Shown: in pieces, positions 3,454-57,953 of the stretch
How the letters are laid out: each line of letters opens with the position of its first letter
How positions within the stretch are numbered: the first letter of the stretch is position 1
Assembly (NCBI GenBank): GCA_043228905.1
Contig: JBHGNT010000009.1
Location: 15,128,001 to 15,192,000 of the forward strand
Reading direction: 5' to 3'
Length of the DNA stretch: 64,000 nt
Source: Azolla caroliniana
Taxonomy: Eukaryota; Plantae; Polypodiophyta
Made by a program: the position numbers and the translations under genes
The notes under the pieces: model-generated
Database searches by the model: none
Told to the model about the DNA's origin: nothing
What the model saw: only the letters and a program-made list of their open reading frames with translations

Positions 3454-3680
3454 TGTTGAGAATCAAGCTCAACTTGGTCTAGTGTGTGAACTCACCTTGA
3501 GAGTGAATAGACACTCCAACGGTCAAGAGTCACCATTATGTCACCATTTTGTATTCTAGCATTTAGTACGAGTCATAGAATCATATTCAATGACACATAA
3601 CTTATGAGCTTTCACATTCCCCATGCTCCATGAGTCTTGTAGTTAATGAAGAGAGGGGGTGACTATATAAAGCACCCTTC
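3454..3680 (+). mobile_element. 5' part of a Ty1/copia LTR, truncated just after the TATA box
   Basis: Starts TGTTGAGAATCAAGCTCAAC and is near-identical to 40273-40491. That LTR is followed (after a nested insertion) by an iMet PBS and copia gag. At about 3680 the sequence switches into gypsy LTR sequence. Confidence 0.85.
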
Positions 3681-15032: not shown

Positions 15033-15701
15033 TGTCGTGAAGATTCACGACCATAGTGAGAAAACCGGAGAAGTTAGTGGCATCGGCGAAGTGCATCATG
15101 TGCACTTACCCTTGTATAAACGTGTTTTCTTGTTTTCTTCTTATTTTCTTGTTTTCTATTAGGGTTCTTTGAGGTCTTCTTCTTCGTCGTTGTCGTGTGG
15201 GTTGAATCTTCATGTCTGTTTAGGGTTTAGTCTGGTTAGGAGCTCGTATGTCTAAAGGGTTTTAGGCTTTTGCCCTGTCTCCTATGCAAGACCCTGTTCG
15301 GCACGATGAGCCCGAGAGCTCCCCAATCAACGGCTTGGCAGAAGACTGTTGTTGTAACCTAACCTACCTTGGTCCAACTCGAAGCCGGAGTTGTATCTTG
15401 CTCTTGTACATATATAATGAAGTTCTATGCATTTGTGTTTCTGTCTGCTTCTTCGGATTTTCTTCTTTCCCTTTCTATACGTAAGTAGCGTGCGGTGAGT
15501 TGGTGTTGCACGTATTCTCTCTCTCTCTCTCCCTCTCTCGGGTTCGACAGCCTCCGATACGCGTCTGGAATCATTCTGGTTAGCGCCATAGCTAGTGCAG
15601 CCAGGACCGGAGAGGGTCGGTCTCCCGGTATCCATCTCTTCCTCGTCTGAGACCCCCGTGGTCCCACCCCTTTCGACACATACTCGCGGAATACCGTGAC
15701 A
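15033..15701 (+). repeat. 3' LTR of element B (internal deletion near 15125 removes the TATA region)
   Basis: Starts TGTCGTG after the PPT. Compared with the ~915-bp LTRs of element C it lacks a block after TATAAACGTG. Confidence 0.88.
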
Positions 15702-15705
15702 ACGC

Positions 15706-17768
15706 ACCATCAAGCCAAAGAAGTGAGCCCGAACGGAAATCACACCCAACAAGTCTCCAAACGATAGCAGCTCCTAGCAAAACACACCCCCGGATGGACA
15801 GCAGGAGACTCGTCTCAGCGGGAAACAGAAGCTTTAGCAAACTGGAGGTAGGAGCCGGTGGAGAAAGTTCCATAAAAGACAACGAAACCAATCAAGATAA
15901 AGTTGTGACAGCATGAAAGAGATAAGGACGAACTGGTACACAGGGTAAACCAGGAAACCGTGGAAGAGAAGTTTGAAGAGGAACCAACTGAAACCCTCCA
16001 ACGACACCCACGGAAGTGCGACGGTGAGTAGCAAGGGGAAGGATCGGGCCTAGCGAAGGATAACACACTGATTCCTTGCTCAACGGTAATGGAACCCAGA
16101 CTGGAAACGACACTAGCTAACAGATCAGAAGCGATGAAGATGGTTCAACCGGAACCGAAGTTAGAGGGACATACATCATCGGGTCTTTTAGGGTAGCAAC
16201 AAGAAGAATGCCGGCTGGAGCAGACACTAGAGCAAAAAGAGCCAGTTGCACAATGGCTCAGGGAGGAGGAAGAACTGCTACCGGAGCTAGTGCAGTAGTT
16301 CGCTGCACTCACACAACATGGAAAATGCCGGCAATGGTTAGAATGGTTTGGCAAGCAGGTAGAGAGTGTGGCTGTTTCCAAATGGATGGAGAACAACAGG
16401 TGAAGCCGAGACAAGTGGAATGATTGCTGAAAATAACCAAAGAATTGGAAAAAGCCCGAAATAAGATTCGGAGCCTAGAGGAGGAGTTGGCAAGGGCTAA
16501 GGATTTCTAAGTCCTTATGTCAAAGATGGGCCAAAGCATAAGCTCCAGAACAAAAGATTGTAGAACTAGCTAATCTATAGAAGGAAGCTTCAGAAACGAA
16601 TTCATAACTAGAGGCCAGCACAACCCAGTAAAAGACGTTGAGTGGGAATAGGAAATGCTAACACTAAGGGAGGAATTAGCCACTCAGGAAGCATTGAGAG
16701 AAAGAGAAAGAGCGCAAACAAAGACAACTGAAGAAGAGAAACAGAGAGTTGAAGAAAATCTCTGAAAAGTCAAGCAAAAAACGACTGGTTGAAGGAGGAA
16801 AGAGAAAAGTTGCTACAGGAAAAAGACAAGCTCCGGAGGATGGCCGAGATGGAAATAAAGCGGTTGAAAGAAGAAATCCGATAGCAAATGGACCGAGAAG
16901 ATAGGGCATGCTCTCAAATAAACCAACGTCTCAAGCAAAAAATGGAGGATTTTGAAAAGTTGCACCGGGACCATAAACAACTCGAGGTAGAGCATAAGAA
17001 GCTAGGGTGGGATTTCGACTGACACCAAGAAAAATTGAAGGAGGTCCGGACGGAATTGGCAAAGAAGACGGAGACACTAGCGGATAAGTAGAAGATGATG
17101 GTTGCATCCACGACACAGATGATGGAAGAAGTGGCAAGTAAAAGGACGTAGTTCACCACAAAGAACTATGAGGAAACGGAACGAGCAAAGATGGTTTTGG
17201 ACAAGGTTCAAACAACCTACCAAACCAAACTGCTGGAATATGAAGTGTCAGCAAAGGCCACTACCGCCCTCATCAAACAACTTAAGGACGAGAAGTTGGC
17301 CACGGAGGACAACACAAAGCTCGACGTTGAATGAATTCGGATGATAGTCACGTCATGGAAAGACTGGATGAAGGCAAATATTGACGATTTTTCAGTTGCA
17401 GTATGGAATCAATGGTCACAGCAAGTGGCAGAACTACAGGTCCTCAAAGCCGATGCGAAAAACCAAAAGAAGGCCGGTGACAATTTCTACAAGATGTAAG
17501 AAGAAAGTATTGTCACCATCTGGTATGGATTGTCAGATGATTTTTCGCTTTGGCCGACACTCACCTCGAAGTTGTCCGGAGGCTGATTAAAAGGCTCAAC
17601 GATGATCAACTTGGAACACAATTACAGTTCAGCCGATACGAGCGGGAGCATCGGCGGTTAGAAACAAAGAAAAGAGCGGCGGCAATAAACATTAGCGATG
17701 AGGACCCGTCTGTAGAACCACAACCGCAGCGGGAAGAGCAGTCAAACCAGCAATCGAATGATGTTTGA
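15706..17768 (+). pseudogene. Degenerate coiled-coil protein ORF of X1
   Basis: WNQWSQQVAELQVLKADAKNQKKAGDNFYKM...LIKRLNDDQL is homologous to WKQWLAHTAELHVFQADAENRKKEGHGFNKM...LLKEFNDDQL at about 31650-31865. Confidence 0.65.
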
Positions 17769-18505
17769 GTAGAGCAGCCAGATGGAGCCAGTACAGAACA
17801 AACGGAAAAAGCCAGGACAAAACAACCAGAACAAGCCGGAAATGGAGAGAATGTTGGAGCCAGAGCAGTATAAGAACGACATCAATCAGAAGGGGCCGGA
17901 GAATAGCAGCAGCAAAGTGAAGAACCACTTGAACCCTTGGATCAGAGTATTTTGGACATACTTGACAAGGAGTGACGAAGGTAGCCTGTGGGTTCAACGT
18001 GCAATGCACTGTCCCACGGGCGTGCCATGTGTTGGCCAGAGTATGGTTCAGAGGACAAATATGGAAAGGGATGAGTCGGAGTCGAATTTTATATTTAGAG
18101 CAATAATTAGTTAGAAATATTATAGGAACTAGCGGATTCGGAATAGTTGTACTGATCCGGATCCAGACCTATTCATAGCCAGTAAGGCACCTTTTTGTAT
18201 TCTCAACTGGAGGCCTATAAAAGGATCTGGGAACCAATGTAATAGCTATCGGAAGTAATACAAGTTAGATTTTTTATCTAAGATTATTGTCCCTTGTCTA
18301 CGTGTCATTCTACGCTTCCATTCTCTATCTTACGTCTGTTCTAATTAAACGGTTGCTCATTACCCCAATCCGGAACGTATCCGGAATCAGTCGGATTGGA
18401 ATCGGATCGGTGTCGGATAACATCATTCCCGTAACCACCCCTTTGGTGAAGTGTCCGGAAGGGCACCCTGTGTTTGTGGCTAGTCCAACCCAGGATAAAC
18501 AAACA
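15706..18505. mobile_element. Orphan LTR element X1 (partial): degenerate coiled-coil ORF (+), tRNA-Arg-like motif 18011-18027, LTR 18030-18505
   Basis: E/K/Q-rich decayed reading frame, then GTCCCACGGGCGTGCCA, then a TGTTGG...AAACA segment containing CCTATAAAAGG. Host copia LTR sequence resumes at 18506. Confidence 0.7.
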
Positions 18506-18850
18506 CACCCTTGAGAGTGTATGAACACTCAAAGGTCAAAAGTCACACCATTACTCTCTACACATTAACTATGTGTCATAGAATCATATTCTATGACACA
18601 TAACTAATGAGTTTCCACATTCCCCATGACTAATGAGCTTCGGTAGTTAATGAAGAGAGAGAGTGACTATATAAAGCACCCTCATCCTACTTTGTAATGA
18701 CTCGGTTAATCTCCTTTGTAATATACATCTTCTTGAGTATTCTATTTTCTATTTTATCTATCTTGTGTCTCTCTCCTCTCCTCTTCTCAAACACACAACA
18801 CACATCTCTAACCTATTCCGCTGCATAGAATTATACCACGATTCTTTACA
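18506..18850 (+). repeat. 3' part of a copia-type LTR related to those at 3454 and 40273
   Basis: Shares GTCATAGAATCATATTCTATGACACATAAC, GACTATATAAAGCACCC and CTATTCCGCTGCA with the LTR at 40273/46246. It is followed by a possible degenerate iMet PBS (TGGAACCAGAAGC). Confidence 0.75.
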
Positions 18851-19315
18851 ACGTGGAACCAGAAGCATAACACTCACACATGTATAGAAGAACGTAGCCT
18901 TCAAGCTCTCTCACTCTCGCACCCCCTGCTCAGAAGCTTTCAAGCTCTCTCGTTCTCAGCCTCAACACTCTCAAATCTCTTCTCACTCTTCATCTCCCGA
19001 GCCAACCATATTGCTCGAAGTTTCGAAGGAGCTCTACACCTGGTTGAATAGGCACAGCCTAGGCGGATACCTCAAACTGGTAGATGCACCCCCCACCCCC
19101 TCACCCCACCCCACCCCACCCTTGAGGCATAGGAAATCGGACGCAGCCTGCATCCTGACACCATCACCAATGAACAAATCCGGCTGGTGTTGGGCTTGTA
19201 GCGAGCAGGGACCATGACATCGAGGCTCCACCTCAGAATGTCCATGAAGCTTATTTCGGGGAGTACTCAATATCGACAAAGGCGTATCATACACAAGGCA
19301 CGCAAATAGGCCAAA

Positions 19316-40272: not shown

Positions 40273-40770
40273 TGTTGAGAATCAAGCTCAACCTCGTCTA
40301 GTGTGTGAACTCACCTTGAGAGTGAATGGACACTCCAACGGTCAAGAGTCACCATTATGTCACCATTTGGTATTCTAGCATTTAGTATTAGTCATAGAAT
40401 CATATTCTATGACACATAACTTATGAGCTTTCACATTCCCCATGCTCCATGAGTCTTGTAGTTAATGAAGAGAGAGGGTGACTATATAAAGTGACGGGAA
40501 CTCAACGCTCCTTATGCGCTACGCTCGGCCACAACCGAGCTTAGAATGATACATAGAAAACAGAAACAAATGTACGCGACACAAAGGAGAGAAAAGGTAC
40601 ACAGAATGTTTATGTGGAAAACCCAAAGAGGGAAAAACCACGGCAGCCCACAGGCTGCATACTATCACTATTTGCCCTAAGTCATATTTATACTAGTATG
40701 ACTTTTCGGCTATTTACAAATATAGCCACGATGGGCTCTCAGAAACATATTTACGAATATGTCTCTTCCT

Positions 40771-41202
40771 CCGGTTCTCACCGGGTCTGCACCATCCGGC
40801 TCTCCGTAGCCGGGTGCTCCTCATCCGGTTCACACCGGGTCTGCACCATCCGGCTCTCCGTAGCCGGGTACTCCTCATCCGGTTCACACCGGGTCTGCAC
40901 CATCCGGCTCTCCGTAGCCGGGTACTCCTCATCCGGTTCACACCGGATCTGCACCATCCGGCTCTCCGTAGCCGGTTACTCCTCATCGGGTTCACACCGG
41001 GTCTACACCATCCGGCTCTCCATAGCCGGGTACTCCTCATCCGGTTCACACCGGGTCTGCACCATCCGGCTCTCCGTAGCCGGGTACTCCTCATCCGGTT
41101 CACACCGGGTCTGCACCATCCGGCTCTCCGTAGCCGGGTACTCCTCATCCGGTTCACACCGGGTCTACACCATCCGGCTCTCCGTAGCCGGGTACTTCTC
41201 TT
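40771..41202. repeat. 54-bp minisatellite x8 in the 3' LTR of J
   Basis: Unit CCGGTTCACACCGGGTCTGCACCATCCGGCTCTCCGTAGCCGGGTACTCCTCAT. Confidence 0.95.
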
Positions 41203-41304
41203 CCGGTTTCGTCCTCAGCCTATCGGCCTCGGCCGAGATTGTTCGTCGGCACTGTTCTTCTCCCTTCCCATCTGGAGGGACCTGTCTCCCAACAAACTCC
41301 CCCT

Positions 41305-45351: not shown

Positions 45352-45838
45352 ATTTCTGTGTTGTTTCGCTCTGATACCACTTGACGGGAACTCAACGCTC
45401 CTTATGCGCTACGCTCGGCCACAACCGAGCTTAGAATGATACACAAAAAACGGGAACGAATGTACGCGACACAAAGGAGAGAAAAGGTACACAGAATGTT
45501 TACGTGGAAAACCCAAAGAGGGAAAAACCACGGCAGTCCACAGGCTGCAAACTATCACTATGTTGGAATGTACAAAACAGTGAGTTCACGGAGGCAACGA
45601 CCTCGTACTCATGATCTTCGCCACAGGCGGCGGTTACAACAGAGGCAGTGACCTCTTTCTTTCTCTCTCTCTCTGTACACTGTTACGTGTTCTCTCTTCT
45701 TCTTGCACCAACAAGAAAATGACAACTAACTACACATATTTGCCCTAAGTCATATTTATACTAATATGACTTTTCAGCTATTTACAAATATAGCCACGAT
45801 GGGCTCTCAGAAACATATTTACGAATATGTCTCTTCCT

Positions 45839-46162
45839 CCGGTTCTCACCGGGTCTGCGTCATCCGGCTCTCCGTAGCCGGGTGCTCCTCATCCGGTTCA
45901 CACCAGGTCTGCACCATCCGGCTCTCCGTAGCCGGGTACTCCTCATCCGGTTCACACCGGGTCTGCACCATCCGGCTCTCCGTAGCCGGGTACTCCTCAT
46001 TCGGTTCACACCGGGTCTCCACCATCCAGCTCTCCGTAGCCGGGTACTCCTCATCCAGTTCACACCGGGTCTGCACCATTCGGTTCTCCATAGCCGGGTA
46101 CTCCTCATCCGGTTCACACCGGGTCTGCACCATCCGGCTCTCCGTAGCCGGGTACTTCTCTT
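45839..46162. repeat. 54-bp minisatellite x6 in the 5' LTR of J
   Basis: Same unit as at 40771. Confidence 0.95.
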
Positions 46163-46560
46163 CTGGTTTCGTCCTCGGCCGAGATTGTTCGTCGGCACTG
46201 TTCTTCTCCCTTCCCATCCGGAGGGACCTGTCTCCCAACATAAAGCACCCTCCTCCCACCTTGTAAAAGAGTTGAGTCTTTCTCCTTTGTTAATATACTT
46301 TACCTTGCGTATTCTCTATGTCTTACTCCGTGTCTCTCTCACTCTCTCTCTCTCTCTCATACACACACACTCACAACACATATCTCTAGTCTATTCCGCT
46401 GCACAAGAATCGCCACCGATTCTTAACATGGTATCAGAGCGATTTGGTAGCTCGATCTAGCCCACTCACCTCATCGTGATCGTGTGTCGTGTCCTTCCCC
46501 GACAACCAAGAACCAGCTCATCGCTATCGTAGCTTCGCTACATAGCTTGCATTCGAAGAG

Positions 46561-47391: not shown

Positions 47392-47984
47392 GCTTGAAGA
47401 CAAAATTGAAGAAAAAATTGGCGACCCCCCTTCTTTTTTTCCTATAAAAGGAGGTTGAGGGGGGGAGGGGCTCATTTGAGGAGGACGTATTGAGAGGAGG
47501 AGACTATCGCCACTTTTCCTTCGGATCTCTTAATCTTCTTCTTCACCACTTCTCTTCATCTCATACCCCTTCATCCCCTCATCACCACGTGCTCGTCTTC
47601 TTCACGTTGGCACTGAAAGTGATCGTTTACGATGCTCGTGAGCCCAAGCTTCGTTGGTTCAACATTGCTTCACCCCGTTCGTCTTTGCGAGCCCGTGTGC
47701 TCACCGTTCTGGCGGTTGTGGTTCATTGTGGTTGGCCTTTTTGTGGTGCTTGTGTGTTCGTCTTTGTCGTGTTCGTGCTCCGTGTTTGGATTTGCTCTTG
47801 TCTCTAAGGGCATTTAGTATTTATGTTTTGTTGAGCTTGTGGTTAACTAGAAGTTGCCACATTCTAATCGAGCCCTATTTTATAAAGGGCCCTCTTGCGT
47901 TGGAATTGAACATATATTTATATCTTTAGCCAATATCAATCGTGTTTTTTTTTTTTTCTTTCTTTCTTTGTTCTCATCCCCTTG

Positions 47985-50372
47985 TACATTCAGCCATCTT
48001 GCTTGTGTGTGTTTGTGTCTTCCTTGTACATTCGGTCGTCTTGTGACGAGGGAGCGTTTCAGGTGTGCCCATGCACCTCTCCTCCTCATAAAGACGTACA
48101 AGCATTTGTATGTGTGCTTGTGTCTTCCTTGTACGTTCGGTCGTCTTGTGATGAGGAGCGTTTCGGGCGTGCCCATGCACCTCTCCTCCTCATAATGACG
48201 TACGAGCATTTTGTGTGTGTGTTTGTGTCTTCCTTGTACGTTCGGCCATCTTGTGACGAGGAAGCGTTTCAGGCATGCCCATGCACCGCTCCTCCTCATA
48301 AAGACGTACGAGCATTTATGCGCATGTTTGTGTCTTCCTTGTACGTTCGGCCATCTTGTGACGAGGGAGCGTTTTGGGCGTGCCCATGCACCTCTCCTCA
48401 TAAAGAAGTACGAGCGTTTGTGCATGTGTTTGTGTCTTCCTTGTACATTTGACAGTCTTGTGACGAGGGAGCATTTCAAGAGTGCCCATGCACCTCTCCT
48501 CCTCATAAAGGTGTACGAGCATTTTGTGCATGTTTTTGTGTCTTCCTTGTACGTTCAGCCGTCTTGTGACGAGGGACCGTTACGGACGTGCCCATGCACC
48601 TCTCCTCCTCATAAAGATGTACGAGCATTTGTTCGTGTGTTTTTGTCTTCCTTGTACTTTCAACCGTCTTATGACGAGGGAGCGTTTTGGGCGTGCCCAT
48701 CCACCTCTCCTCATAAAGAAGTACGAGCGTTTGTGTGTGTATTTGTGTCTTCCTTGTACATTTGACCGTCTAGTGACGAGGGAGCATTTCGGGCATGCCC
48801 ATGCACCTCTGAAGGTGTACGAGCATTTTGTGCATGTGTTTGTGTCTTCCTTGTATGTTCGGCCGTCTTGTGACAAGGGAGCGTTACGGGCGTGCCCATG
48901 CACCTCTCCTCCTCATAAAGGCAGACGAGCATTTGTGCGTGTGTTTGTGTCTTCCTTGTACGTTCAACTGTCCTATGACGAGGAAGCGTTTCGAGCCTGC
49001 CCATGCACCTCTCCTCCTCATAAAGGCACATGAGCATTTTGTGTGTGTGTATGTGTTTTCCTTGTACGTTTGGCCGTCTTGTGACGAAGGAGTGTTTCGG
49101 GCGTGACCATGCACCTCTCCTCCTCATAAAGGTGTACGGCATTCTTGCATGTGTTTGTGCCTTCCTTGTATGTTCGGTCGTCTTGTGACGAGGGAGCATT
49201 TTGGACGTGCCCATGCACCTCTCCTCCTCATAAAGGCGTATGAGCATTTTGTGTGTGTGTTTGTGTCTTCCTTGTACGTTCGGCCGCCTTGTGAAGAGGG
49301 AGCGTTTCGGGCATACCCATGCACCTCTCCTCCTCATAAAGGCTTACGAGCATCTGTGCGTGTGTTTGTGTCTTCCTTGTACGTTCAGTCGTCTTGTGAC
49401 GAGGGAACGTTTCAGGCATGCCCATGCACCTCTCCTCCTCATAAAGGCGTACGAGCATTTGTGTGTGTGTTTCTGTCTTCCTTGTACGTTCGACCGTCTT
49501 ATGACGAGGGAGCGTTTTGGGCGTACCCATGCACCTTTCCTCATAAAGACGTACGAGCATTTGTGCCTGTGTTTGTGTCTTCCTTGTACATTTGACCGTC
49601 TTGTGACAAGGGACCGTTTCAGGCATGCCCATGCAGCTATCAAGGCGTACAAGCATTTTGTGCATGTGTTTGTGTTTTCCTTATACGTTAGGCCGTCTTG
49701 TGACGAGGGAGCGTTTCGGGCATGCCCATGCACCTCTCCTCCTCATAAAGACGTACGAGCATTTGTGTGTGTTTGTGTCTTCCTTGTACATTCGACCGTC
49801 TTGTGACGAGGGAGCATTTTAGGCATGCCCATGCACCTCTGCTCCTCATAAGGCATATGAGCATTTTGTGCGCGTGTTTGTGTTTTCCTTGTACGTTCAG
49901 CCGTCTTGTGACGAGGGAGTGTTTTGGGCATGCCCCTGCACATCTCCTCCTCATAAAGACGTACGAGCATTTGTGCGTGTGTTTGTGTCTTCCTTGTACG
50001 TTCGACCGTCTTGTGACGAGGGAGTGTTTCGGTCATGCCCATGCACCTCTCCTCCTGAAAAAGACGTAGGAGCATTTTGTGCGTGTGTTTGTGTCTTCCT
50101 TGTACGTTCGGTCATCTTGTGACGAGGGAGCGTTTTGGGCGTGCTCCTCCTCATAAAGAAGTACGAGCATTTGTGTGTGTGTTTGTGTATTCCTTGTACG
50201 TTCGGTTGTCTTGTGACGAGATGTCATTCAAGCTCGCCCATGCACCTCTCCTTCTCATAAAGGCATACGAGCATTTGTGCGTGTGTTTTCGGTCTTTCTT
50301 GTACGTTCAACATCTTTTGACAAGGGAGCATTCGGGCGTGTCCACTCACCTCTCCTCCTCATAAAGACATAC
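47985..50372. repeat. ~105-bp tandem satellite, about 22-23 units, inside the 5' LTR of K
   Basis: Unit GTGTTTGTGTCTTCCTTGTACGTTCGGCCGTCTTGTGACGAGGGAGCGTTTCGGGCGTGCCCATGCACCTCTCCTCCTCATAAAGACGTACGAGCATTTGTGCGT; the ORF track shows a 35-aa periodicity. Confidence 0.95.
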
Positions 50373-50708
50373 GGGCATTCGTGTCTCTGTTATCGTCCCC
50401 TTGTGTGTTCATCTTGCGTACTCATCTTTGCTTGTACCCGTTTGATCACTTTGCTCATGCGGTGATCTCGAAAACTCGACTAGTCGTGATCAACAAAAGC
50501 CACTGGCCTCACAAAAGGCGCAACGAGCCCTTGCTCGGGAAGGGATCAGGAAGTAGTATTGTCGTAAAGCAAACCTCAGGTCTTCTCTATCACTGCAGTA
50601 CTCCCTAGTCCAAGACCCTTGTGGTCCCGCCCAAGTAACACACACGCGCGAAACATCGCGACATAAATTGGTGAACCCGACATCAAAGGACGGCAAGGGA
50701 GATCCAAG

Positions 50709-54096: not shown

Positions 54097-54630
54097 CTCA
54101 TACCCCTTCATGCCCTCATCACCACATGCTCATCTTCTTCGCGTTGGCACTCGAAGTTCTCATTTACGGTGCTCGTGAACCCGAGCTTCGTTGGTTCAAC
54201 GTTGCTTCGCCTCGTTCTTCATTACGAGCCCGTGTGCTCGCCGTTCAGGTGGTCGTGGTTCATTGGGGTTGGTATTTCTGTGGTGCTTGTGTGTTCGTCT
54301 TTGTCGTGTTCGTGCTCCGTGTTCGGATTTGCTCTTGTCTCTAAGGGCATTTAGTATTTATGTTTTGTTGAGCTTGTGGTTAACTAGAAGTTGCACATTG
54401 TAATCGAGCCCTATTTTATAAAGGGCCCTCTTGCATTGGAATTAAACACGTATTTATTTCTTTAGCCAATATCATTCGTGTTTTTCTTTCTTTCTTTCTT
54501 TCTTTGTTCTCGTCCACTTGTACGTTCGGCCGTCTTGTGACAAGGGAGTGTTTCAAGCGTGCCCATGCACCTCTCCTCCTCATAAAGGCGTACGAGCATT
54601 TGTGTGTGTGCTTGTGTCTTCCTTGTACGT

Positions 54631-55427
54631 TGTCGTAGTGTGAATCACACACTACGTGAAATATGTAAAATACTATATCCGATTTAAAGTACGTATTATA
54701 AATAAAATAAAACATTAAAAATATTTATTACGTGCATAAGGCAAGATTTGAACCCTATACCTCCACATAGACAAACCCCAACCTTACTATTGTACTAACT
54801 TATCCTAATATGTATAAGACCTTTATTTACTCCTATCTTTATTAAAAGGTAAGTCATGCATTTTTTTTAGAATGCGTGAATACTTTATTTATAAGAAAAA
54901 TGTACACCAATAAAAAATGACTTGTGCACATCTAACGAGCATGAGCACTATATTTAGGAAATAAAAGCATAGTGTAAAAAGGCAACTCATGCACATTTAG
55001 TGTGCATGAACACTTTAGAAAAAGCATGAAGCTATGCTTAGCCTCTTCCATCCTTATATAAAGAGGAGATAAAGATGTATGGGAGGTTGTTGCTTATTTT
55101 TACAAGGGTGGATTGATATAATATAATCGTGGGATTCACGAATTTGCTAACTATTTTTTTCTCTCTTAATCTGAGTACTCACTAATACACTATACTCGTG
55201 GGATTCACGAGTTTTTCATATCTTTCTTTCTTACAACATATTTCATATTCATCATTGCCTTAGAATTTCCTTTTCTCCTAGTCCAAAACCTCAATGGTTC
55301 TCGCCCGACTCACGCAACGATCCGGCGCCGAAAGGCACGACACAAGTGAATTTCCTTTTCTCCTAGTCCAAAACCTCAATGGTTCCTGCCCGACTCACGC
55401 AACAATCCAGCGCCGAAAGGCACAACA
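54631..55427 (+). mobile_element. AT-rich gypsy-type solo LTR
   Basis: TGTCGT...ACAACA ends and 4-bp TSD ACGT (54627-54630 and 55428-55431). The U5 motif CTAGTCCAAAACC...TGGT resembles elements A, B, C and K. The last ~85 bp is duplicated. Confidence 0.85.
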
Positions 55428-55600
55428 ACGTTTGGTCGTCTTGTGACAAGGGAGCGTTTCAAGCGTGCCGATGCACGTCTCCTCCTCATAAAGGCGTACG
55501 AGCATTTTGTGCATGTGTTTGTGTCTTCCTTGTACTTTCGGCCGTCTTGTGACGAGGACGCGTTTCGGGCGTGCCCATGCACCTCTCCTTCTCATAAAGA

Positions 55601-56107
55601 TGTACCCAGTTCGCGGAGAGGCCCCCACCGCCCAAACACAACCTAGACACTAACCCGTCCGTCCCTTTAAAATATAAATATAAATATCGTTATCCCTCCA
55701 AACACCTCATACTACTTTCAATTATAATAATTATAACTAATCAAAACAAGTCATTCATATCAATCAATAAATACACTAATCATCGGTCGTATTGTTGTGT
55801 AGACAAGGGCTAGGGAGTGTAAGAATTGGTGCACTGTCATACGGTGATACTAATCTTCGTCCTATCAGGTTATAATCGATGGCGTCCACTGCATTCACCA
55901 AGCTCCTCCACGCGCACTACCCCGACGTCGGTTGTGGCTCCTTGGTAATTCAAGCCGAGTTCAACAACACTCGTTGTACCTACCGGGCCTCAAGTTCTTC
56001 CTCAAGATTGTCCTTTGGGGTGTACTTCCTGAGTTGGTCAGCCGGTTCCTCACAAGATACAACCCCGATACCAGCCACATTCGCATGCACGCCTTCGCAA
56101 ACGCTAC
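55601..56107. other. Unidentified ~500-bp insert in the satellite
   Basis: Interrupts a satellite unit, with no TSD and no match elsewhere in the window. Confidence 0.55.
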
Positions 56108-56585
56108 GGGTGTGTTTGGGTCTTCCTAGTACGTTCGACCGTCTAGTGATGAGGGAGCGTTTCGGGCGTGCCCATGCACCTCTACTCCTCATAAAGGCGT
56201 ACGAGCATTTTGTGCATGTGTTTGTGTCTTCCTTATATGTTCGCCCGTCTTGTGACGAGGGAGTGTTTCGGGTGTGCCCATGTACCTCTCGTCCTCATAA
56301 AGACGTACGAGCATTTTGTTCATGTGTTTGTGTCTTCCTTGTACATTCCATCGTCGTGTGACGAGGGAGCATTTTAGGCGTGACCTTGAACCTCTCCTCC
56401 TCATAAAGGTGTACGAGCATTTTGCGCATGTGTTTGTGTCTTCCTTGTACATTCAGTTGTCTTGTGACGAGGGAGCGTTTCGGGTGTGCCCATGCACCTC
56501 TCCTCCTCATAAAGACGTACTAGCATTTGTGCATGTGTTTGTGTCTTCCTTGTATGTTCGACCGTCTTGTGACGAGGGAGCATTT

Positions 56586-57302
56586 TGACGGAACTCAAGG
56601 CTCCTTATGTTCAACGCTCGGCCACAACCGAGATTCTTTTCATACACAGAAAACGAGAAATAAAACGCGACACAAAGGAGAGGGAGATACACAGGAGGTT
56701 TACGTGGAAAACCCAAAGAGGGAAAAACCACGACAGCCCACAGGCTGCAAACTGTCACTATGTGAGAATGTACAATAGTGAGTTCACTGAGGCAACGACC
56801 TCGTGCTCACAGATCTTTGCCACAAGCGGCGGTTACAACAGAGGCAACGACCTCTTTCTCTCTCTCTCTCTTTGAAAACTATTACGTGCTCTCTCTTCTT
56901 CTTGCACCAACAAGGGAAAAAAATGACAACAACAGTTACTAAAAGTTTGCCCTAAGTCATATTTATACTAATATGACTTTTCGGCTATTTACAAATGTAG
57001 CCTCAATGGGCTCTCAGAAAACATATTTACGAATATGTCTCTTCATCCGGTTCTCACCGGGTCTGTACCATCCGGCTCTCCGTAGCCGGGTATTCCTCAT
57101 CCGGTCTTCACCGGGTCTGTATCATCCGGCTCTCCGTAGCCGGGTACTCCTCATCCGGTTCATACCGGGCCTGCACCATCCGGCTCTCCGTAGCCGGGTA
57201 CTCCTCATCCAGTTCATACCGGGCCTGCACCATCCGGCTCTCCGTAGCCGGGTCCTCCTCATACGGTTTCCCTTCCCATCCGGAGGGACCTGTCTCCCAA
57301 CA
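56586..57302 (-). mobile_element. Solo LTR of the copia J family with a 54-bp repeat x4 (57047-57262)
   Basis: TGACGG...CCCAACA ends and perfect TSD CATTT (56581-56585 and 57303-57307). Confidence 0.95.
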
Positions 57303-57953
57303 CATTTTGGGCATGCCCATGCACCTCTTCTCCTCATAAAGACGTATGAGCATTTTTTGCATGTGTTTGTGTCTTCCTTGTGCGTTCGGCCATCTTGTGA
57401 CGAGGGAGTGTTTCGGGCGTGCCCATGGACCTCTCCTCCTCATAAAGACATACGAGCATTTGTGCGTGTGTTTGTGTATTCCTTGTACGTTCAGTCGTCT
57501 TGTGACAAGACGTCGTTCGGGCAATGCCCATGCACCTCTCCTCCTCATAAAGGTGTACGAGCATTTGTGCCTGTGTTTTGTGTTTTCCTTGTACGTTCGA
57601 TGTCTTGTGACAAGGGAGAGTTCGGGCGTGCCCATGCACCTCTATTCCTCATAAAGACGTATGGGCATTCGTGTTTGTGTTATCATCCCCTTGTGCGTTC
57701 ATCTTGCTTTCTCATCTTTGCTTGTACCCATTTGATCACTTGGCTCGTGTGGTGATCTCGAAAACTCGACTAGTCATGATCAACGAAAGCCACCGGCCTC
57801 ACAAAAAGGGCAACGAGCCCTTGCTCGGAAAGGGGTCGGGAAGTAGTATTGTCATAAAGCAAACCTCGGGTCTTCTCTATCCCTTGAGTACTCCCTAGTC
57901 CAAGACCCCCGCGGTCCCACCCAAGTAACACGCGCGCGCGAAACTTCGTGAGA

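Follow-up and report, generated by a model that had tools for sequence, protein, structure and literature searches.

A Ty3/gypsy clade of Azolla caroliniana in which a tRNA-Arg(UCU) site replaces the polypurine tract and a tRNA probably primes the plus strand

A host tRNA, tRNA-Arg(UCU), likely primes the plus strand in a clade of Ty3/gypsy elements of Azolla caroliniana, as judged from sequence comparison. Priming of this strand from a polypurine tract (PPT) is the taught rule for retroviruses and LTR retrotransposons. The clade is large and recently active, and we are fairly confident that it has abandoned the PPT and primes both strands with host tRNAs, the second one at a hairpin-gated site on the minus strand, and that fossil cDNA ends record the covalent link between tRNA and DNA. 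The literature searched, with most subscription papers outside it, contained no precedent for an LTR element with a tRNA-primed plus strand.

A truncated element with a tRNA-like sequence before its 3' LTR

The analysis concerns a stretch of 64,000 nt (the window), which is a nest of LTR elements. The following parts of it belong to or border the element under study (X1):

15134-15701, plus strand: LTR of an unrelated family, left boundary of the remnant
15708-17975, plus strand: decayed remnant of the 3' part of a sense extra ORF, charged and coiled-coil-like
17988-17997, plus strand: box matching tRNA-Arg positions 49-58 (5' strand of the T stem and T loop), one mismatch in the window copy
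17998-18010, plus strand: 13-nt insert, inner stem of a bulged hairpin, with compensatory changes across families
18011-18027, plus strand: 17-nt sequence (GTCCCACGGGCGTGCCA) that copies the 3' end of tRNA-Arg(UCU), CCA included, except for a single missing C; at the position of the PPT
18028-18029, plus strand: 2-nt spacer, internal to the element, TG in the window copy
18030-18501, plus strand: 3' LTR of 472 bp, TG...CA, delimited by the ends of other copies and two solo LTRs
18214-18224, plus strand: TATA-like box of the LTR, reading in gag-pol's sense
18502-18506, no strand: putative target duplication in the right flank, at the start of another family's LTR

In a preliminary description the locus was taken for an orphan LTR element. 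It is the 3' LTR of a truncated plus-sense Ty3/gypsy element, which was cut at 15701-15708 by the unrelated LTR. Neither pol nor a 5' LTR of this element is present in the 64-kb window, and the 5' partner of the window copy is also absent from the 10 kb to the left of the window and from L251. Two solo LTRs with 5-bp target duplications set both LTR termini, and the right end, first placed at 18505, lies at 18501 as in other copies. On the right, the element is flanked by the beginning of another family's LTR, the target of its insertion; the left partner of the putative duplication at 18502-18506 was not found.

The order of motif, 2-nt spacer and LTR from 18030 was described correctly, and the TATA box reads on the plus strand as claimed. 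Read on the minus strand, the motif is a primer-binding site (PBS) that points into the LTR. Its assignment to the 3' end of tRNA-Arg(UCU) agrees with the tRNA genes of the genome, which with CCA added end in the motif plus one C, so that the match is right except for this missing base. Because of the deletion, an exact 18-nt PBS search of the window found no match. The spacer, which is AG, GG or CG in other families, is missing before 5' LTRs and solo LTRs and is therefore internal to the element. A purine tract before the LTR is indeed lacking, with 9 purines in the last 20 nt and a longest run of 5 in 60 nt. The second tRNA-matching box (17988-17997) and the hairpin insert (17998-18010), which falls between the positions matching tRNA A58 and G59, did not feature in the preliminary description.

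The plus-strand coiled-coil ORF reported upstream is recognizable as the remnant of a sense extra ORF, but it is not open: each frame contains 33-36 stops and the longest open stretch is 100 aa. The remnant shares 80-84% DNA identity with the same region of the L013+L014 copy and 39-41% amino acid identity with the intact extra ORF of L065.

Further features of the window are arrays of 54-nt and about 105-nt units (40615-41238, 45737-46198, 47894-50380 and 54517-57672), the 54-nt units resembling those in a copia LTR seen in L047. In the neighbouring family, a purine-rich tract is found ahead of the 3' LTR (20810-20771, minus strand); a 7-nt PBS-like word 39 nt upstream of this tract is probably due to chance. 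One LTR family is represented by two copies (3481-3678 and 18502-18860), each hosting another inserted element.

Complete copies carry gag-pol and a PBS on the plus strand

Complete relatives are 9-10 kb long including the extra ORF and follow the order 5' LTR, tRNA-Arg PBS, gag-pol, sense extra ORF, site and 3' LTR, without a purine tract. In a copy on C2, a single strand carries LTR, PBS, gag, protease, RT, RNase H, integrase, extra ORF, motif and LTR. Young copies have LTRs that are 99-100% alike, a gag-pol frame of 1,940-1,955 aa and a sense extra ORF of near 1,000 aa. Pfam analysis of the intact 1,952-aa frame of L048 identified gag, CCHC, RVT_1, RNase H and integrase in this order and neither aRH nor a chromodomain; the protease motif of the gag-pol frame was read by eye. 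The extra ORF matched no Pfam family above cut-off, and its Atlas matches, all under 0.9, are a lead only.

All 14 complete elements combine a PBS after the 5' LTR with the motif before the 3' LTR, a count that is partly by construction because the elements were picked by junction patterns. An exact 5-bp target-site duplication (TSD) was found by script in 11 of the 14 and by eye in 13, after rereading of two ends that the script had trimmed 2 nt too far. The last 20 nt contain 8-10 purines in all 14, compared to 13-16 in six relatives outside the clade, and purine runs within the 45 nt that precede the 3' LTR reach a length of 4 and no more in eight elements. A non-circular sample, independent of the junction pattern, was obtained by LTR similarity, scoring the best 40 of 873 candidates. 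The left junctions of the 26 distinct LTR copies found in this way show that 16 are preceded by the motif (in two of these the part upstream is rearranged), seven have a plus-strand PBS behind them and unrelated left flanks, two are solo LTRs with TSD and one is partial and unclassified. A 3' LTR after a purine tract did not occur among these 26.

Several derivative structures were seen as well. L054:369-1850 is an internally deleted copy of 1.48 kb with identical LTRs and a TSD, in which the two tRNA sites and some 130 nt of sequence ahead of the 3' LTR are retained. L160 (C4:7.837-7.840 Mb) is a young three-LTR derivative with a 5-bp TSD and without a PBS, in the order LTR, 4 nt of spacer, then extra-ORF end and 3' site, twice; it looks like a product of faulty second-strand transfer, and L152 has a similar break at the PBS. 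L249:520-1680 consists of two inverted LTRs with the 3' site inside each, lacking both PBS and TSD. At C2:15.20-15.36 Mb (L241, L242), nine same-strand sites lie in about 160 kb, and in L241 an LTR is shared between tandem elements.

The 3' site matches tRNA-Arg(UCU) irrespective of the PBS

Three overlapping patterns of the site gave 551, 667 and 1,913 exact matches in the genome, the last one for site, 2 nt and LTR start, and one PBS junction gave 428; all controls, including the reversed pattern for the 1,913, gave 0. In the family of the window, the PBS is a 13-nt match to the complement of the genome's tRNA-Arg(UCG), extended in L047 to at least 18 nt of tRNA complement; in other families the PBS matches Arg(UCU), likewise over 13 nt. 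Whichever of the two tRNAs the PBS matches, every family has Arg(UCU) at the 3' site, which therefore does not follow the PBS. With RNA parameters as a proxy, the duplex predicted for the site of the window reaches -50.1 kcal/mol with Arg(UCU) versus -31.9 kcal/mol with Arg(UCG). A full 18-nt tRNA-Arg(UCU) PBS is also present in another family (L252, L253; L211, L212), whose U5 end and PBS are joined head-to-head to U5 ends of the site-bearing clade at two loci.

The one-base deletion is retained in all families seen, and the insert upstream of the 17-nt motif measures 13-14 nt across families. For an alignment of the hairpin, 24 sites were hand-chosen from 58 distinct ones to span families. 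In the bulged structure, 93.6% of the cells are paired (slid controls: 32-50%), 5 of 11 pairs have changed on both sides and covariation amounts to 0.297 versus 0.092 in shuffles (0 of 500), figures that lean in favour of the hairpin because it was drawn from the same sequences and the rows are related. The hairpin also folds in plus RNA. Outside of it lie the last 10 nt of the site, which vary mainly from G to A at two positions; these changes would leave G-T pairs between the tRNA and minus-strand DNA. We infer that the tRNA may pair beyond these 10 nt, against which it counts that the covariation of the hairpin extends to positions 58-60, where some families differ from the tRNA.

Undeleted tRNA ends are fused to the left ends of LTRs

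The strongest evidence for a tRNA primer comes from three independent insertions, compared to at least 1,913 ordinary sites, in which the left end of an LTR is fused to a true, undeleted tRNA end with CCA (57, 18 and 18 nt). This end is not encoded by the element, and all three footprints keep the spacer of their own family. We searched the genome with a tRNA T-arm pattern and read all 20 matches: ten are genes without CCA, seven are over-copies with CCA at LTR right ends and three, on C2, are local duplicates of one event.

The C2 footprint comprises the last 57 nt of the tRNA, anticodon arm included, and is identical to the gene L195 plus CCA. It joins the spacer of the family and the start of the 5' LTR without a TSD at the joint, and the 3' site of the same element has the ordinary form. 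The right flank of this element lacks a repeat of the joint, so that insertion into an older tRNA copy did not take place. The locus is rearranged and triplicated. Contigs of four sequencing runs contained no piece spanning the C2 joint of tRNA and LTR, which speaks neither for nor against it. On C16, two joints between LTRs of an element with TSD each contain a footprint of exactly 18 nt, which links the U5 spacer of one LTR to the U3 start of the next and differs from the element's own site at 3 places. The C20 footprint consists of 18 nt of another isoform before the 5' LTR.

The right-end over-copies (L035, L198-L202, L204) provide an internal control, as 7 of the 20 T-arm matches come from the end where tRNA priming is established. 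They contain tRNA-Arg(UCU) with CCA, from 28 nt up to the whole tRNA. L198 is a retro-copy of the whole tRNA that ARAGORN scored as a gene, and such right-end retro-copies could be miscounted as tRNA genes.

A separate search, for undeleted ends that precede the start of an LTR, yielded eight matches, three from C2, two from C16, one from C20 and two others, which were set aside because on the opposite strand each is the ordinary PBS of a different family. With a looser pattern, just three more (of 9) came up, mutated internal sites that were likewise dropped.

A host tRNA as the probable plus-strand primer

The start of integration defines the end of the plus-strand primer by the established logic of end formation. 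Integration begins here 2 nt after CCA, and therefore the plus-strand primer ends in the site sequence. Plus strong-stop DNA is what the 5' LTR receives its U3 half from by copying, so the simplest account of tRNA sequence fused there is that a tRNA was attached to this DNA at its 5' end. The footprints are likely the mark expected if a tRNA primes the plus strand and sometimes stays on.

In the course of replication that we propose, tRNA-Arg (UCG or UCU, depending on the family) would prime the minus strand at the PBS. After the first transfer, the site would be copied into minus DNA and the RNA cleared by RNase H, and the last 10 nt of tRNA-Arg(UCU) would anneal to the tail that the minus-strand hairpin leaves exposed. 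Pairing could reach positions 59-65 and 49-58, with the insert looped out. The RT would then extend the CCA end through the 2-nt spacer into U3. Normally the tRNA would be cut off and the spacer trimmed by integrase; an uncut tRNA would be copied by the minus strand to the m1A58 stop (18 nt) or beyond and leave a footprint. A tRNA on DNA is a substrate of RNase H, which counts against tRNA priming; both the role of the hairpin and the escape from RNase H are inferred in this scheme.

The primer could instead act in cis, if the element's own RNA at the site survived RNase H and were cut after CCA as a non-purine, tRNA-mimicking PPT, the footprints being rare template switches. We consider this unlikely, although no second tRNA would be necessary and the covarying hairpin, its folding in plus RNA and the retained one-base deletion would all fit. 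Moreover, two joints with another family's 18-nt tRNA end indicate that such joints form in several ways; they were the only matches in a genome search of U5-spacer joints and were dropped, as they lead to another family's U5 end and PBS. However, a cis primer always matches its own template, and the identity of the last 10 nt to one host tRNA need not persist across families. Arg(UCU) was also captured in two families with an Arg(UCG) PBS (C2, C20). Remnants of the element's own form speak against a cis primer by their absence, with none at the U5-spacer joints (0 of 2) and no short one before a 5' LTR among 72 sites of this form. These samples are too small or narrow (the 72 make up little of the 1,913) for a rate such as that of the footprints to be ruled out. 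In 71 of the 72, no PBS lies behind the LTR; in the remaining case two elements share the LTR, and the internal sequence exceeds 500 nt. Switching in addition to a cis primer would still need the same tRNA to anneal at the same place. By a template switch, minus DNA could also jump onto the tRNA at the 10-nt match without this tRNA being the routine primer.

It is quite improbable that a 3' fragment of tRNA-Arg(UCU), of 18-22 nt or a half, serves as primer in place of the whole tRNA. Two of the three footprints measure exactly 18 nt and the available text of PMC7197481 describes 3' tRNA fragments that bind PBS sites, but 18 nt is also the length at which RT stops at m1A58 on a whole tRNA (available text of PMC13191261), and the 57 nt of the C2 footprint cross the anticodon. 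Hardly credible is a pairing of the site with the element's own PBS, for circularisation or self-priming, together with a hidden purine tract as the plus-strand primer. Site and PBS are complementary in families with an Arg(UCU) PBS (-19.2 kcal/mol in C16), and in one young family 8 purines in a row lie about 40 nt upstream; yet the site did not follow the switch of the PBS to Arg(UCG) (-9.6 kcal/mol), 8 of the 14 elements have no purine run above 4 in the 45 nt ahead of the 3' LTR, and a primer 40 nt upstream would not yield the observed end.

The first option of the preliminary description, a minus-sense element with an ordinary PBS, an antisense 5' ORF and an outward promoter, rests on a minus-strand junction that reads like LTR end, 2 nt and PBS, and is refuted because gag-PR-RT-RH-INT, the TATA box and a second PBS all lie on the plus strand of full copies, with a purine tract on neither strand and thus none on the minus strand at the other LTR. 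Its second option was a plus-sense element in which a tRNA site replaces the PPT and a second tRNA primes. The full copies, the plus-strand PBS at their other LTR junction and the tRNA footprints at left ends bear this out, and the ordinary minus-strand gag-pol behind the site that was named as the contrary outcome was not seen in full copies.

Comparison with known LTR elements

Extended pairing between primer and template that involves the T-arm is known from Ty1, Ty3 and HIV-1. Half-tRNA and self-priming variants are represented by Bianca, Osser, Tcn1 and TAR in the available text of PMC6317226. The present clade resembles these cases in departing from the standard primer and in its putative pairing with T-arm sequence outside the 18-nt PBS, but they concern the minus strand, whereas the site described here faces the plus strand.

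As set out in the available portions of PMC13191261, PMC7197481 and PMC7264820, canonical LTR retroelements use a tRNA at the PBS and an RNase H-resistant PPT for the plus strand. Like them, the elements of this clade have a PBS after the 5' LTR, TG...CA LTRs, a 5-bp TSD, a short spacer at each end and 18-nt copies of the primer tRNA up to m1A58. Unlike them, they have no PPT, a tRNA-matching site on the minus strand instead, and tRNA copies at LTR left ends. A PPT before the 3' LTR is usual and found in 'most' elements, but it is not a superfamily criterion in the part of PMC6317226 available. The domain order, the TG...CA LTRs with TSD and the PBS are those of Ty3/gypsy, and the usual PPT is absent; by its domains the element is a member of Ty3/gypsy, in none of the described plant lineages tested.

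The following comparisons draw on the accessible text of PMC6317226 and, for Athila, of ATHILAfinder (10.64898/2026.03.20.713144). Athila, a non-chromovirus (OTA), shares with the clade the lack of a chromodomain and of aRH, a single gag-pol ORF, the 5-bp TSD, an extra 3' ORF and a spacer of several nt before the PBS (both sources). It differs in its primer, tRNA-Asp/Asn and not tRNA-Arg (PMC6317226), and Brassicaceae Athila have a conserved PPT junction that is absent here (both sources). In the Tat group (Ogre, Retand, TatI-III), a tRNA-Arg PBS is common and extra ORFs occur (PMC6317226); unlike in this group, aRH is lacking here and the extra ORF is sense and without a Pfam match above cut-off. 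The assignment to the Tat/Athila group in the preliminary description could not be maintained: aRH is absent, and in trees the site-bearing clade lies outside the angiosperm group, which presumably corresponds to Athila. Two further non-chromovirus elements, Phygy from a moss and Selgy from a lycophyte, are similar in the lack of aRH. Phygy, however, has a 4-bp NCGN TSD, tRNA-Trp and no extra ORF, and Selgy a 4-bp TSD, tRNA-Ala and about 5 kb (all PMC6317226), in contrast to the 5-bp TSD, tRNA-Arg, 9-10 kb and extra ORF of this clade.

One core step of Ty3/gypsy replication has probably been replaced here. A clade that is successful without a PPT (one genome contains at least 1,913 sites, and in many cases the LTRs are identical and the frames open) would show that the plus-strand priming step is replaceable, and it offers a way to test by what means RT and RNase H select a plus-strand primer, preserve it and take it off again. 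It could also be that tRNA fragments are able to regulate both steps of priming. Annotation tools that score the PPT will miss or misorient these elements.

Phylogeny and range of the site-bearing clade

A metagenome sample of 75 loci was collected by pol similarity. The site is present in all three in-clade metagenome contigs that reach the 3' junction (L071, L086, L139), with further changes in the stem. At six loci that are more distant and whose junction can be read, the tract is purine-rich, with 13-16 purines in 20 nt, two of the six boundaries being set by eye. In an integrase tree of 54 rows, from which L245 was omitted as its match was too short, 13 site-bearing rows fall within an 18-row clade with a support of 100/100; the other five rows are without a readable junction. 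The six purine-tract rows fall outside this clade, and one change of state suffices. The 13 site-bearing rows as a clade of their own were rejected (p-AU 1e-4), since the five rows without a readable junction nest among them.

The families with an Arg(UCG) PBS form one subclade, the branch order not being settled by the tree, and site-bearing families are 71-89% alike in integrase. A search of the genome for sister families with an ordinary PPT returned 150 near-equal matches, and those placed are site-bearing young families. No relative of the element was found in viral contigs. Among named proteins, those of the liverworts Riccia and Marchantia come closest, which by itself would suggest a non-seed land plant as the probable host. 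Outside the clade, L088:2-7375 contains a gypsy frame of 2,458 aa that continues past integrase, where a second protease-like motif was recognized by eye.
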